Origin: a virus
Virus record (IMG/VR): IMGVR_UViG_3300047548_000777
Span: 1-64,000 of that record
DNA: 64,000 nt
Strand: one strand, 5' to 3'
Shown here one piece after another: positions 55,561-60,932 of this stretch. The stretch's first letter is position 1. Each line of letters begins with the position of its first letter. The notes below the pieces were generated by a model, which was not told where the DNA came from, made no database searches, and saw only the letters and a list, made by a program, of their open reading frames with translations. A program made the position numbers and the translations under genes.

Positions 55561-56763
55561 TTAAAATATCAAACTATAGACAATTGCTCTACGTTTGCTT
55601 ATTAATTCGTCGTTTGTTCCTTGAGTGTTTACAAAATACAACCCAGTTCCACCGCCACCAACTTCGTTTTTAGAATAGAATTTAACATACCCTGGATTGG
55701 ATTCTTGCGATGGATTATAACTCACAGGAGCATTTTTTAAATTCAATACACTATCTAATAGTAATACGTTGGTGGAAATATTAGATATACTATTAGATTC
55801 TAATCTAATATTGTCAGCGGTTAATCCAGAATTGTTAACTACGACTCTAGGAAATGCATCTACGTCAAATACGATTTCACCAAGGCCTGTTTGATTTGTA
55901 TCGAATACCTGTACTTTAGTGTCGCCTTCTTGTATTTTATTTGTAGAAAACACTCTACGATTTGTATAATCTACAATGGCTCTTATATTCGGAATCGCAT
56001 CATCATTTTTTACAGGATTCGGACGTACTGTACCTGTCGCAGAGGATGTTGCAAGGTCTGGACCTTCGTTTCTATAAGTCAGTGTTACCGCATTAGAACC
56101 AGCATCAGGAACTGAGACAACAGTAGCAAATAATGTGTCAAAAGTTGAATTATTTAAAACAAATATATCAACTTGTCCACCAGCTATTATAGTATGCGGG
56201 GCACTGGTTGTTATTGTTGCTATATTATTAATTCTAGATATAGTTGATATTTCATAAACTGTATTAAGTTTATCGTAATCAAGAATTTGTCTTTCATAAT
56301 TTAAGGTACCAGTGACATTAATAATGCCGGTACCTTGTGTGATTAAATTTAAATCATTCCCACCAGTGTCTATTCTGTTTGTTGCTATACCTTGTATTGC
56401 AGTAGATAGATCCGAAGCATCTACATAACTACTATCAACAAATACAAACTGATTAGTTCGTTCGTCCCATAATATAGAAACGTCGGGCAATGTGCCTCTT
56501 TCTATAGAGATACCAGCAGTAGATCCTAAAGTTTTAACACCGTCCAACTGTTCATTTTGATTTAGAACAATAATGTTGTCTTTAATAGCTAGATTTTCTG
56601 ACTCTATAATTGTGGTTTTGCCTTGTATATCTAAATCGCCAACAATGACTACCTTACCTTGATTTCCTAAAAAATTAGTATCAAAGGTAATTGTACCAGG
56701 ATTACCCGGAGAACCCACCACAAGTTTGTAATTACTATCTTGTACTCTAACTATTTTTGACAT
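55561..56763 (-). CDS. Virion structural / fibre-base protein
   Basis: 400 aa; GDLDIQG.TT......IKDNII.LN motif shared with the fibre genes. Confidence 0.7.
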   Translation of the reverse strand: MSKIVRVQDSNYKLVVGSPGNPGTITFDTNFLGNQGKVVIVGDLDIQGKTTIIESENLAIKDNIIVLNQNEQLDGVKTLGSTAGISIERGTLPDVSILWDERTNQFVFVDSSYVDASDLSTAIQGIATNRIDTGGNDLNLITQGTGIINVTGTLNYERQILDYDKLNTVYEISTISRINNIATITTSAPHTIIAGGQVDIFVLNNSTFDTLFATVVSVPDAGSNAVTLTYRNEGPDLATSSATGTVRPNPVKNDDAIPNIRAIVDYTNRRVFSTNKIQEGDTKVQVFDTNQTGLGEIVFDVDAFPRVVVNNSGLTADNIRLESNSISNISTNVLLLDSVLNLKNAPVSYNPSQESNPGYVKFYSKNEVGGGGTGLYFVNTQGTNDELISKRRAIVYSLIF

Positions 56764-56813
56764 TATACATTCCCTTATACAAGGGGCCGCATAGACCCCT
56801 ATAGTAAATTATA

Positions 56814-57461
56814 TTAAGCAGCAACAGTTAATGTAACCGCATTAGAAGTTACACTAGTAGCACCGGTTGCACTAACAATTACACGATATAGGTTACCGTC
56901 ATCCGATGGTTGTAAACCAAGTAATAGTAAGTTATCGTTAGTAGATGCAGTATTACTCCATGTTGCGCCAGAGTCAGTTGAAACTTGCCATAGATAAGTT
57001 AGTGTAGCACCTTCTGTTACGTTAGCAACGACCGCAAATACAGCTTCTCCATCAGCTGCGGTTTGATCAGTTGGCTGCGATGTAATCGTAATGAACGGGG
57101 AAACACTGGTTTCAACTTCATCCATTTCTGCCTTTCCATCTGTAATACTACCATCGAATGTCCAAGCATAGCTTACACCGCCGGCGACAACTCTATGTGC
57201 AGCAATCTTAGTAACTCTTCGAACAACGCCGTCATCAGTTTGTACACTGATAGACATCTCGTTAGCTGCTAACGAACCATCTGCTTTATCTACTAAGAAA
57301 CAATCACCTGTGTTAGCACCAACTGTTACTTTAAATTTTCTGGTACCTCGTTGACTTACAATTCTGCCGTCGCCTTCTGCATTGGCACCGATTTTTGCAC
57401 GAACTTTGATCTGATTACCTGCGCCAGATCCGAAATATCTCTTGTTTAGTGGACGTCCCAT
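56814..57461 (-). CDS. Putative head decoration protein with a C-terminal Ig-like domain
   Basis: ITSQPTDQT...FAVVA...LTYLWQ...DDGNLYRVIVS...SNAVTLTV; first structural gene downstream of the capsid gene; AAGGA SD. Confidence 0.65.
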   Translation of the reverse strand: MGRPLNKRYFGSGAGNQIKVRAKIGANAEGDGRIVSQRGTRKFKVTVGANTGDCFLVDKADGSLAANEMSISVQTDDGVVRRVTKIAAHRVVAGGVSYAWTFDGSITDGKAEMDEVETSVSPFITITSQPTDQTAADGEAVFAVVANVTEGATLTYLWQVSTDSGATWSNTASTNDNLLLLGLQPSDDGNLYRVIVSATGATSVTSNAVTLTVAA

Positions 57462-57480
57462 TTGTTTGATTCCTTATAAA

Positions 57481-57559
57481 TAGTATTATGGATGTGGGTT
57501 CTATCCACTACGGTGTGGGGCACCGTAAGCTATTATCTGTTAAATAGCATCCATTACTA
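57481..57559 (-). ncRNA. Candidate structured 5'-leader RNA, copy A (four-way junction)
   Basis: AUGGAUG/CAUCCAU closing stem around three hairpins; fills the space between CATAAATA (57568-57561) and the SD of 57461. Confidence 0.65.
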
Positions 57560-57565
57560 TTATTT

Positions 57566-58240
57566 ATGTATATTAAGATGAATACTCCTTACACTTACCT
57601 AATCGGATGGTCAGATTTAAATCGTTGGTATTACGGCGTTCGATATTCTAAGAATTGCCATCCAACTGACTTGTGGAATCCGTATAAGACATCAAGTAAG
57701 ATAGTATTAAAATTTATTAAAGATCACGGAGAGCCCGATATTCGAATTGTTCGTCGTACATTTAACAGCGTTAACGAAGCAAGAGTATGGGAGCATAGAG
57801 TTCTATTAAAATTAAACGTCATTAATAAAGAGAAATGGTTGAACGGACATAATACTATTGCGTTTGATATTACATTAGTTCCAAAAGGAGATCAACACTG
57901 GACTAGAAAGAATCCCGAAAAGTGGGCTAAAATTCAAAAATTTAGAAAATACCAAAAAGGGGAAATGCATTGGACTAATCAAAAAACTGCATCGGCGCAA
58001 CAGCATCGAACGCGAATGAATAGCGAAATGAATCCTAATAATTTTTTACACAACAAGATTTTAAGAAGTGAAAAGTTAAAAATCGATAATCCTGTTAATT
58101 TACCAGGAGTTAAAAATAAAATTAAAGAAACATTAACAGGATATAAGCATCCTCGTAAAATATGCGAGCACTGCGGTAAAGATGTAGCTGATTCGATTTA
58201 TACAAGATGGCACGGAACTAAATGTAAAAATTTAGGTTGA
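57566..58240 (+). mobile_element. Free-standing homing endonuclease, GIY-YIG-like
   Basis: YTYLI-(8)-WYYGVR, YKTSS, A.VWEHRVL, WLN; C-terminal CEHC...RWHG.KC; inverted relative to the structural operon. Confidence 0.75.
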
Positions 58241-58306
58241 CGTTTTAGGTCTACGCTGCGGGGTTACAGCATAAGTCTCGTGTTAAACGAGCACTCAGTT
58301 ATAGAC
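58239..58306 (-). ncRNA. Candidate structured leader RNA, copy B (orphaned)
   Basis: Same three hairpins as copy A with compensatory changes; follows late promoter GATAAATA (58319-58312). Confidence 0.65.
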
Positions 58307-58323
58307 ATATGTATTTATCATAT

Positions 58324-58352
58324 AAAGAAAAAGGCTTCCGAAGAAGCCTTTT
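58324..58352 (-). terminator. UUCG-loop intrinsic terminator after the orphan capsid tail
   Basis: AAAAGGCTTC-TTCG-GAAGCCTTTTTCTTT. Confidence 0.9.
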
Positions 58353-58374
58353 ATTGGGGGTGTTACTCAGTTAA

Positions 58375-58437
58375 TTAACTAAACTTGACTGCGCCAGAAG
58401 CGATAGCAACCTTACCTAAGTAATCTGCGGCATTTCC
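58375..58437 (-). pseudogene. Orphan duplicate of the last 20 codons plus stop of the major capsid gene
   Basis: Translates GNAADYLGKVAIASGAVKFS*, identical to the MCP end; 53/63 nt identical to 59757-59819. Confidence 0.95.
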
Positions 58438-58447
58438 TACGGAAACT

Positions 58448-58750
58448 TTATAGTGGTAATTGAGAACTAAGTTCTAGTATTCGATCTTTCATTTCAATTA
58501 GTTCGTTGTTTGTTTTTTCAATATCTGGATCATTTTTATCAGGATAATTGATATTTAAAATACTATCGATTACAGAAATAAATTCCTCAACGTTATTTAA
58601 AATCATTGCAGATCTAGAAGGAGATCTTAATCTTATCAAAATATTTAAAGATTTTTCAAGTATATCATATGTATGTTTTACAGAATCAATATCTACTCCG
58701 CGCATGTTAGACCATAATAAATTCTTATCAGTTATTTCAAATATTCTCAC
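58448..58750 (-). CDS. Hypothetical cargo protein (100 aa)
   Basis: AGGAGA SD before GTG; begins MRIFEITD; AT-rich. Confidence 0.65.
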   Translation of the reverse strand: MRIFEITDKNLLWSNMRGVDIDSVKHTYDILEKSLNILIRLRSPSRSAMILNNVEEFISVIDSILNINYPDKNDPDIEKTNNELIEMKDRILELSSQLPL

Positions 58751-58886
58751 CAAGAGATCTCCTATGCTCTAATTCTTTGATTAGATCCGTTAAATCAGAT
58801 TCTGCTTGATGACGCAAATCATTAATTTTTTTGTTTATTTCTCTAATTTTGTTAATTGTATCTTCAGATAAATTTTTATTTTCCAT
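58737..58886 (-). CDS. Small coiled-coil cargo protein (49 aa)
   Basis: My translation: MENKNLSEDTINKIREINKKINDLRHQAESDLTDLIKELEHRRSLGENI*; ATG 2 nt after the HNH stop. Not in the ORF track. Confidence 0.55.
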   Translation of the reverse strand: MENKNLSEDTINKIREINKKINDLRHQAESDLTDLIKELEHRRSLGENI

Positions 58887-58888
58887 AA

Positions 58889-59656
58889 TTATTCCGTTTT
58901 AAGTTTACAATTATCCCCGTGCCATCTAGCATATCCATTAACTGCAACTAACTGATTGCAATGAGGGCACTGCTTCTTTTCTCGTTTCATATTTAAAGCC
59001 CGCTGTGTTTCTGCTCGACGCACAACTACTTCCGGATCTTGTTTTCGCCCAGACAATGATTCACTTATCTTTTTCTTTGTATCTTCTGATACATTAATCC
59101 CAAATCTATTATTATTTTCTCCTTGTTTAGAAGCAGATAACTTTCCTCTCCATTCTTTAGAAAAAGGCTTGCGTTTTTTTCCTAATTTACTGGCAGATAT
59201 CTTCGCTCTTGCCTCTAGTTGTTTAGCACCGTTATTTTCACCGGTAACTGCTGCTCGTTGTCTTTCTGTTCCTTCTGCACTACGGTAAAATTTGTCTCCG
59301 TACATAGGATTTTTCTCGCCAGAGTATCGTTCACTTTGTAACATAGAGTATTCTTCTTTCAAATTTTCATATACTCTAGCTGTAACTTTTGTTTTATATC
59401 GTTGTTGGCGGGAATTTTCTGCTTGCATCATTCTAAATGCGTTAATCATTTTCCAGTGTGCTTCACCGGTAGGGTATATTTTTGTTAATAACCAATGGCA
59501 TATAAAATGTTCGCGGGCAGTTAAATCAGTTAAATTTTCAATGGAATCATCGCCGCCTAGACTTTTTGGCAGTATGTGATGTTTTTCTGTATAACCATCT
59601 CTAAGTGCTTTTCCTACAGTTGTAATAGCTACATACCATTTTTTGTATTTGTTCAT
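58889..59656 (-). mobile_element. Free-standing HNH homing endonuclease with NUMOD3-like repeats
   Basis: EKHHILPKSLGG.D...NL..LTAREHFICHWLL; GEKNPMYG, SEDTKKKISESLSG; C-terminal CPHC...RWHGDNC. Confidence 0.88.
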
Positions 59657-59661
59657 AACTT

Positions 59662-59712
59662 TATTTATATTCGATAACTCAACATAATACATTAAAAATA
59701 AAATTAAGTCAA
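59662..59712 (-). promoter_or_regulatory. Sigma70-type plus late promoter for the HNH gene
   Basis: TTGACT (59712-59707)-17-TATTAT (59689-59684); TATAAATA at 59669-59662. Confidence 0.7.
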
Positions 59713-59738
59713 GAAAAAACCCGCCGAAGCGGGTTTTT
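59711..59738 (-). terminator. UUCG-loop intrinsic terminator after the capsid gene
   Basis: AAAAACCCGC-TTCG-GCGGGTTTTTTCTT. Confidence 0.92.
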
Positions 59739-59756
59739 GATATATTAAATGCTCAA

Positions 59757-60932
59757 TTAAGAGAACTTAACAGCACCAGAAGCAATAGCAACCTTACCTA
59801 AGTAATCTGCAGCGTTACCTAGAGAGCTAGCAGTATTACTCAATTCCACGTAGCCATATCTCGTCATAAAGCTTACGACTGGTTCGAATGTAGACGGATC
59901 TAGAACAACACCAGAGCTCATTAGAGGAACATATGGGCAATAGAATGCAGCAGCGTCTGCTTCGCTGGAACCCTTATATCCAACTAGGATATCAGCGTTA
60001 TCAGCAGCATATGTGTTAACATAGATCTTCATTGCGTTGTTTAGTGTACCAACGAACTTGGTGTTTGTTGGAGCTTCAAAAGTACCTTCTGTAGTACGAG
60101 CAAATGCACTAGTAGTAGCAGATTGTAGAATTGTTAAAGCTAGTGGGCTAACAACTGCCCAGTTACCTGCGCCACGACGTGTACGCTGAGCGATTAAGTT
60201 AGCAACACGGTTGATCTGAACAGCTAAAGCAGCGTGCTCGTCACCAACGAAAGTAGCAGTACCGCTAACAGCAGACTGGTCATAAGTCTGTAGAGCAGCA
60301 CCTGCTAGGTTGTTTAAAGAACCTAGAACTTCTTGATCGATTTCAGCAGTAATTTCTTGTGCTAGAGCAGCCATGATTTCTGCTTCGATATCGATACCTT
60401 GTTGAGCTTGTGCATCTTGTGCAGCTTCGAAAGTCCAACGTGCGCTTAGTTTGCGTGTCTTGGCTTCGACGGTCTGCTTTAAGATTTGAATGCTCATTCT
60501 GTTACCAGCAGTACCTTCTAACGCAGCAGTATTAGCAGCCTTAGCAGCATTTGCATTTTGGTTACCAGAATAAGCTTCAGCAATCTTGAATGGGCTGAAT
60601 GCTTCTTCACCAGCTACAACGCCAGCGCCAGTGCTTGTATCACTGTAGCGAACACGTAGAGTATGAATTTGGCCAACTGGACCAGTTAGAGGCTGAACAC
60701 CAACTAGTTCGTTAGCAATAACGGTTGGCATAACGCGACGAATAACCGGTAGAATAACACGGTTTAGTGTTGCAACGTTACCAGCAGAAGTAGCGCCAGC
60801 TGTAGCACTTTCTGCAAGATACTTGCGTGTATTTTCTAATGTTACAGCCATTGTGGATTTACGGGTGCCGCGTAGGCCTTCTAATAGGGCTTCCTTGGTC
60901 TCGTTCCAACGGCCAGTGAGTAGTTCTGACAT
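59757..60932 (-). CDS. Major capsid protein (gp23-like)
   Basis: VGVQPLTGPVGQI, VEAKTRKL.A.WT.EAAQD, EITAEIDQE, FYCPYVPL, TFEPVVSFMTRYG; strong codon bias. Confidence 0.97.
   Translation of the reverse strand: MSELLTGRWNETKEALLEGLRGTRKSTMAVTLENTRKYLAESATAGATSAGNVATLNRVILPVIRRVMPTVIANELVGVQPLTGPVGQIHTLRVRYSDTSTGAGVVAGEEAFSPFKIAEAYSGNQNANAAKAANTAALEGTAGNRMSIQILKQTVEAKTRKLSARWTFEAAQDAQAQQGIDIEAEIMAALAQEITAEIDQEVLGSLNNLAGAALQTYDQSAVSGTATFVGDEHAALAVQINRVANLIAQRTRRGAGNWAVVSPLALTILQSATTSAFARTTEGTFEAPTNTKFVGTLNNAMKIYVNTYAADNADILVGYKGSSEADAAAFYCPYVPLMSSGVVLDPSTFEPVVSFMTRYGYVELSNTASSLGNAADYLGKVAIASGAVKFS

Follow-up and report, generated by a model that had tools for sequence, protein, structure and literature searches.

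Two freshwater-2 RNA leaders flank an endonuclease-like gene near a phage capsid gene: copy A heads a virion-protein gene and copy B is probably a stranded relic

Two similar three-hairpin elements lie on the minus strand of a 64,000-nucleotide stretch of viral DNA (the window; positions 1 to 64,000 of IMG/VR record IMGVR_UViG_3300047548_000777), one on either side of a free-standing endonuclease-like gene, which raises the questions of what kind of RNA they are, what such an RNA does for the gene that follows it, and how one of the two copies came to stand apart from any gene of its own. As argued below, it is very probable that both elements, referred to here as copy A and copy B, are freshwater-2 RNA. 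Copy A is the working leader, copy B was probably stranded by the endonuclease gene, and the leader may act in the control of translation initiation.

A sequence-only reading of this DNA had described the pair as an unrecognised RNA, which turned out to be wrong. In a permissive Rfam scan of 3.5 kb, copy A (57481-57559, minus strand) matched RF02980, the freshwater-2 RNA, across all 84 model positions, Shine-Dalgarno sequence (SD) and AUG included, with a score of 45.2 bits (E = 6.4e-5 in the 3.5 kb and 3.4e-7 for the record), while copy B (58239-58291, minus strand) matched at 29.2 bits over model positions 1-70 (E 0.1). These are the top two RF02980 matches in the entire 77.6-kb virus record. 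The gathering score of RF02980 is 49.9 bits, which is a curation threshold and not a biological feature, and both copies miss it, copy A by 4.7 bits and copy B by far. Therefore, standard Rfam annotation is silent here. For copy A, the shortfall is attributable to a long outer stem and to an unusual spacer holding an antisense promoter box. Among sampled relatives, all 20 of 20 scored above the cut-off (50.6-76.7 bits), and in IMG/VR the two nearest homologues of the downstream protein (L008 and L009) carry the motif directly 5' of their AUG, at 51.9 and 45.1 bits, respectively. The hairpin 2 feature of RF02980 (UAUG..G and C..CGUA strands with a U-G or C-G pair) is present in both window copies. 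For its hairpin 3 feature, a stem of 3-4 bp directly after hairpin 2 with a 7-nt N-UAGAAC loop, copy A has AUAGAAC on 4 bp, and copy B deviates by one base, with CUAAAAC on a stem of 3 bp. An SD and AUG follow within about 5-30 nt in copy A and do not in copy B, and the window element shares the RF02980 neighbourhood, with a Gp23-type capsid gene upstream and an open reading frame (ORF) of the MGRP family downstream. Other Rfam matches in the region (STnc370, rsmX, and amino-acid leaders) were dismissed, as they lay far below their cut-offs, on terminators or AT-rich spacers. Judged by sequence, copies A and B are almost certainly freshwater-2 RNA. The pair in the window is made up of slightly atypical members of a known family, and the stranded copy B is the new feature. 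RF02980 is of type Cis-reg, and its motif is one that we take to come from a comparative screen of 224 motifs. To our knowledge, neither the Rfam entry nor any publication assigns it an organism, a gene context, or a function. A literature search found no paper naming freshwater-2 as an RNA, and the motif is not mentioned in the main text of the 2017 survey (PMC5737381).

The proposed three-hairpin fold of both copies on the minus strand was borne out by minimum free energy (MFE) folding. Copy A (57490-57550, minus) folded into three adjacent hairpins at -19.4 kcal/mol (z -4.87), with 0 of 200 shuffles as good, and copy B (58232-58300, minus) did so at -17.4 kcal/mol (z -3.22), with 1 of 200 shuffles as good, whereas folding of the plus strand was weaker (z -2.9 for copy A and -0.85 for copy B). 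In copy A, the MFE fold and the Rfam alignment both give hairpin 1 (GCUAUU / UAACAGAU / AAUAGC, 57529-57548), hairpin 2 (UACGGUG / CCCCA / CACCGUA, 57509-57527), and hairpin 3 (GUGG / AUAGAAC / CCAC, 57494-57508). In copy B, both give hairpin 1 (CUCGU / UUAAC / ACGAG, 58277-58291) and hairpin 2 (UAUGCUG / UAACCCCG / CAGCGUA, 58252-58273), which are followed by hairpin 3 (GAC / CUAAAAC / GUC, 58239-58251), whose loop has an A where the family has a G. The stems and loops quoted in the sequence-only reading are present in the sequence, except that the hairpin 2 loop of copy B had been given as UAACCCG, which is missing one C of the actual 8 nt. That reading was also right that the copies share UUUAACA in the hairpin 1 loop. 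The other 118 of the 120 listed family members lack it, which suggests either that donor and recipient belonged to one narrow lineage or that the copies have exchanged sequence; overall, the two are not mutually nearest relatives. The argument that G-U pairs favour the minus strand likewise held, as a U-G pair is found in hairpin 2 of 101 of the 105 listed relatives; copy A has the rarer C-G form (4 of 105).

The borders of the two copies also lie where they had been placed. Both begin 6-20 nt past a late-promoter-like octamer, which for copy A is CATAAATA (57561-57568, minus), overlapping the first ATG of the endonuclease ORF, and for copy B is GATAAATA (58312-58319, minus), the commonest octamer upstream of the listed family members (57 of 117). 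The end of copy A precedes the start of the MGRP gene (57457-57475, minus), which consists of the SD AAGGA (57475-57471), an A-rich spacer, and AUG-GG (57461-57457), and this variant of the leader-SD junction reads AAGGAATCAAAC. Copy B ends at the stop codon of the endonuclease gene (58238-58240), which is overlapped by the 3' strand of its hairpin 3. When folded with its flanks, copy A gains an additional 11-bp outer stem, the 5' strand of which (57549-57559, minus) pairs with the 3' strand at 57481-57493 (minus). The energy of this duplex is -9.2 kcal/mol (z -3.7), the strongest among 84 relatives. The long outer stem is built from two promoter-proximal arms. The spacer of copy A holds TATAAATA pointing toward the endonuclease gene (57475-57482, plus), so that copy A lies between two convergent late-promoter-like boxes, at 57475-57482 (plus) and 57561-57568 (minus); an endonuclease transcript from the plus-strand box would have leader A in antisense as its 5' UTR. 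As a feature of the family, an outer closing stem (a 'four-way junction') was rejected, given a median of -0.1 kcal/mol and z < -2 in only 6 of 84. A leader subfamily (e.g. L010, L033, L053, and L086) carries AU(C/U)GGACU(U/C)CU between hairpin 3 and the SD, which can pair with (A)GU(U)CA just past the promoter to form a short outer stem in that subfamily only.

Relatives were sought by matching a degenerate pattern of hairpins 2 and 3 to DNA, which picked out at least 120 viral contigs, and more than 150 relatives were collected from uncultured aquatic giant phages. Nearly every listed match has the same anatomy, consisting of a promoter box, a variable hairpin 1, hairpin 2, hairpin 3, AAGGAG, and AUG-GGA-CGU-CC. 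The two pairs of hairpin 2 that the pattern left free were paired in 106 of the 106 listed matches, with 13 and 36 double changes, and the inner pairs 1-3 of hairpin 3 were paired in 100, 100, and 98% of the listed matches, by CG, GC, AU, or UA, compared with 9-43% for slid controls. Hairpin 1 is unrelated in sequence between most listed loci and is missing in some. In 117 of the 119 listed matches, hairpin 2 was preceded by TAAATA at a distance of 10-40 nt, versus an occurrence in 2.7% of random 70-nt windows, and the usual forms of the promoter box, GATAAATA and CATAAATA, each agree at 7 of 8 positions with TATAAATA, the consensus of the gp55-dependent T4-type late promoter. A pairing between the UAGAAC loop and an upstream GUUC was considered and discarded: the GTTC or TGTC at +4 to +8 after TAAATA resembles a part of the initiation region, and GTTC is found in neither window copy.

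The genomic position of the motif is equally regular. In all 81 of the listed loci that include the capsid gene, the motif is downstream of that Gp23-type gene and shares its strand. Many of these loci leave a distance of just 70-130 nt from the capsid stop codon to the motif, and in the others the interval is taken up by endonuclease genes or by small variable ORFs. Across related loci (e.g. L041, L009, L020, L026, L109, and L072), this interval is a hotspot in which variable ORFs of 89-235 aa and endonuclease-like genes are found, and the order of the genes on its two sides is preserved. The ORFs downstream of the motif, among the matches listed, all belong to the MGRP family. When homologues were instead picked solely for the similarity of their proteins, the strict motif was found upstream of 59 of 67 distinct genes, with one or two more carrying variants, which supports the predicted tie between the motif and homologues of the protein that begins MGRPLNKRYFG. 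The MGRP genes of L306 and L311 have divergent leaders upstream (e.g. with a hairpin 3 loop of UUGGAAC) that were missed by the strict motif and may extend the family. With a strong leader as the query, blastn returned no match in 50,697 phage records, and an RF02980 search of the three nearest cultured phages (PA5oct, Sinorhizobium phage Phosso, and Vibrio phage 2.275.O) yielded nothing above noise. Overall, the element is a conserved cis-acting leader of the minus strand with covarying stems, and the earlier suggestion of a required cis-regulatory leader is supported at the level of the family.

Copy A is the working leader of the MGRP gene of the window (56814-57461, minus), which encodes a 215-aa virion protein starting MGRPLNKRYFG and carrying an Ig domain. 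Members of this family begin with MGRP (in a few, MA), which opens a basic N-domain that is all-beta, measures ~115 aa, and either stands alone or is followed by other modules. The window protein combines the N-domain with a C-terminal Ig-like domain (AlphaFold model, pLDDT 94), and this Ig domain matches capsid decoration proteins of phages Moo19 and N4 as well as Hoc of RB49. The PA5oct homologue, which is without a freshwater-2 leader, carries an annotation as a structural protein, detected in the virion by mass spectrometry. The pI of the N-domain is 10 in the window protein, the family median being 9.0, with a net charge of +3 over residues 1-12. A fold search with the N-domain gave a best Z of 4.7, to Tudor/SH3-like barrels and within noise, and no RNA-binding fold was recognised. 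A metagenome scan with the 215-aa protein produced a single full-length relative at 52% identity, and close relatives of the window have proteins that are 79-94% identical. Some phages carry tandem MGRP paralogues (L117, oriented, about 677-1454; L100, 534-2120; and L181), each with its own promoter and leader or with the second placed 11 nt after the first and without a leader.

The side of the locus facing the capsid gene is more complex. Here, the Gp23-type major capsid gene (59757-60932, minus) is separated from copy B by an HNH/NUMOD3 endonuclease cassette (58448-59692), which sits between two capsid-gene ends. The last 20 codons and stop of the capsid gene (59757-59819, minus) are duplicated across the cassette as a relic at 58375-58437 (minus), which encodes the same 20 residues and differs at 10 of 63 nt. 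An intrinsic terminator with a UUCG loop follows the relic (58329-58352, minus) and was the only terminator-like site from a scan of 56600-59900; a UUCG-loop terminator of its own was noted after each of the two capsid ends. No report of a capsid gene partly duplicated in association with an endonuclease emerged from a literature search. The free-standing homing-endonuclease-like gene between both leaders (57566-58240, plus) encodes 224 aa and matches PHROG 314, 'homing endonuclease' (E 1.8e-4), and PHROG 37840 (E 4e-7). This protein had been called GIY-YIG-like, and a GIY-YIG domain was not detected in it; it also had no Pfam match even at E 10, no PDB sequence match, and no close relative among the viral contigs searched. 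The endonuclease-like proteins encoded at 58889-59692 (minus) and 57566-58240 (plus) have in common a C-terminal zinc-finger-like tail (C-x-H-C...WHG..CK) and differ in their N-terminal parts.

How unusual copy B is can be judged from the DNA collected, which contained 163 relaxed matches to the core. Of these, 153 have an SD, an AUG, and an ORF after them, 5 are truncated by contig ends, and 4 are chance matches, leaving copy B as the only genuine orphan, with no SD, AUG, or ORF, of about 155 instances. It lies 101 nt after the relic capsid-gene end, the canonical distance being 70-130 nt. Its likeness to other leaders extends through GUCAACCUAAA and, in a by-eye comparison with L026-type leaders, takes in a spacer remnant, AACCUAAA (58231-58238, minus), before ending where the SD should start. 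The last three codons and the stop of the endonuclease ORF derive from this same GUCAACCUAAA stretch of copy B. Since the UAAAAC loop variant of copy B is also found in one gene-linked relative (L331), it is no proof of decay. From its position and its abrupt end, copy B is probably a stranded relic leader. The ancestral order at copy B would have been capsid-gene end, terminator, promoter, and leader, and in the simplest history the free-standing homing-endonuclease gene would have inserted at the conserved leader-SD junction, bringing with it a second promoter and leader, A, which would keep the MGRP gene expressed after the insertion. The neighbouring HNH cassette, beside its recoded capsid-end duplicate, displays the same pattern as that proposed for the endonuclease gene and the second leader.

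In a different history, copy B would once have headed another MGRP gene, a tandem paralogue whose place the endonuclease gene has taken, and the present gene would always have had copy A as its leader. Tandem promoter-leader-MGRP units do occur in L100, L181, and L022, and L117 has two paralogues in a row, which indicates that copy B could have headed a paralogue since lost. However, no MGRP coding remnant was found between copies B and A (tblastn best E 0.11), and genes of the NKR-FG type come first after the capsid gene, i.e. at the position of copy B, in L100 and L117, the two relatives examined that carry both types of paralogue. Moreover, copy B ceases to resemble other leaders precisely where the SD would lie, and the endonuclease ORF continues into its sequence. 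We therefore consider a lost paralogue unlikely. The sequence-only reading had held that copy B is the original leader and copy A its replacement, and this is likely, though unproven: the canonical spacing, the end of likeness at the SD, and the status of copy B as the only orphan speak for it, and the tandem units in relatives speak against it.

As for function, freshwater-2 is a structured 5' leader that is apparently under a T4-type late promoter and heads the MGRP gene or genes downstream of the capsid gene in a large aquatic clade of uncultured giant phages, and its most likely role would be to control how translation of this particular gene is initiated. Leader and gene family go together one to one, and this holds even where genes have been duplicated, which argues for gene-specific control rather than for a general element of late messages. 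A candidate mechanism is suggested by the loop of hairpin 2, the 3' end of which is CCCA or CCCG in most listed members and directly adjoins the stem. In copy A, the loop CCCA (57519-57516) is complementary to UGGG at 57460-57457. Among the matches listed, a 4-mer complementary to the loop is found at AUG +1 in 77% and at +2 in 15%, against a background of ≤4% at most other offsets and up to 12% near +28 to +30, and 86% of the cells are paired in the loop-to-start alignment. The loop also varies with the start: in the listed matches, a GCA (Ala) second codon is accompanied by the loop GCCA in 8 of 11 cases and never by CCCA, and 8 of the 9 GCCA loops occur with AUGGC starts. The 3' end of the hairpin 2 loop (CCCA or CCCG) may thus stack on hairpin 2 and pair with the U-G of the AUG and the following GG, which would create an H-type pseudoknot over the AUG; its formation may be modulated in trans, perhaps by the basic MGRP protein. 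With no 3' linker and at least 1 nt on the 5' side, the geometry would appear to suit an H-type pseudoknot. The candidate helix is only 3-4 bp long, and its fourth pair is mismatched where ACCA loops occur with AUGGG (about 20% of the listed relatives). Well-supported branches of the N-domain tree provide ~3 independent contrasts, in which the loop follows the start in ~2.4 and the opposite never occurs, which is not significant. Translational control through pairing of the loop with the AUG is a tentative proposal, somewhat less likely than not. We also considered whether the leader might be an insulator that keeps the ribosome site open, and set this aside given the small effect in nested folding, where openness of the site was 0.68 versus 0.61 for shuffled leaders.

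The one-to-one link with the gene family, even through duplications, would also be expected of a protein-binding operator that does without start-codon pairing, in which a phage protein, e.g. MGRP acting autogenously, recognises junctions and loops. The sites so recognised would be the junctions UUAUG and CGUAG and the loops UAGAAC and CCC. This idea and the pairing model are compatible in part. Bases in the loops and junctions are indeed invariant and the N-domain is basic, but no RNA-binding fold was recognised in it, and we regard such an operator, along with this choice of sites, as somewhat unlikely. A leader that acts on the message or the polymerase, whether as a 5' stabiliser, a processing site, or a put-like antiterminator along the late structural operon, would be consistent with a location within about 10-20 nt of the promoter box and at the head of a run of structural genes. 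Stable 5' hairpins are known to protect bacterial mRNAs. However, the leader is always near the SD and AUG of one gene family, both of which are even included in the Rfam model, its conserved loop bases would be needless for a plain stabiliser, and other late genes in the window are without this leader, all of which makes an action of this kind quite unlikely. The compact multi-hairpin fold and its conserved junction bases might also suggest a metabolite-sensing riboswitch, yet the downstream gene encodes a virion structural protein rather than a metabolic or transport function and there is no conserved alternative terminator or SD-sequestering helix, such that a riboswitch is highly improbable. 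The boldest possibility joins several of these elements: MGRP would bind its own leader and lock the hairpin 2 loop on the start codon, and the endonuclease would target the leader-SD junction, a suitable target in being highly conserved, and spread together with a cleavage-resistant leader, leaving copy B as the footprint of a 'leader swap'. We consider this combination improbable; if true, the synthesis of MGRP would be matched to capsid assembly.

Freshwater-2, until now an orphan Rfam motif, can be placed as the late-promoter-driven leader of one virion-protein family, in a context adjoining the capsid gene of uncultured giant phages. Our preferred mechanism, a pseudoknot between the hairpin 2 loop and the start codon, would be concrete and testable, and nature supplies a compensatory pair for it in GCCA loops and GCA codons. 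The stranded copy B would represent a rare natural experiment, in which a selfish endonuclease parted a leader from its gene. The gene nevertheless has an intact second leader in front of it, which suggests that the phage has need of this RNA. The gain is a moderate one, as the freshwater-2 family was already catalogued.

Compared with other members of RF02980, the window elements have the same three hairpins, the UUAUG...CGUA hairpin 2, the NUAGAAC loop of hairpin 3, and the SD and AUG, whereas copy A adds the long outer stem and a spacer with an antisense promoter box, and copy B has UAAAAC in loop 3 and is without SD, AUG, and gene. Phage T4 has autogenous translational operators in its replication genes, namely the leader pseudoknot of gene 32, the operator hairpin of gene 43, and the RegA sites. 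Freshwater-2 resembles these as a structured 5' leader at the start codon of a single phage gene, for which a pseudoknot and control by the gene's own product are possible; unlike them, it heads a late virion protein gene instead of a replication gene, and there is no homology in sequence or structure. The put RNA of HK022 mediates processive antitermination through promoter-proximal stem-loops that act in cis at the head of a phage operon. The window element similarly presents promoter-proximal stem-loops heading a phage operon, but its sequence is unlike that of put, and it accompanies the SD and AUG of a single gene family. T4-like phages also harbour free-standing homing endonuclease genes of the Seg and Mob families. 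As in these, the endonuclease-like ORF described here is intergenic, stands alone, and lies beside a highly conserved sequence, with a second endonuclease (HNH with NUMOD3) located 0.7 kb away beside the recoded capsid-end duplicate. In contrast to a clean insertion, a duplicated and diverged copy of the interrupted element was probably left behind at this locus.
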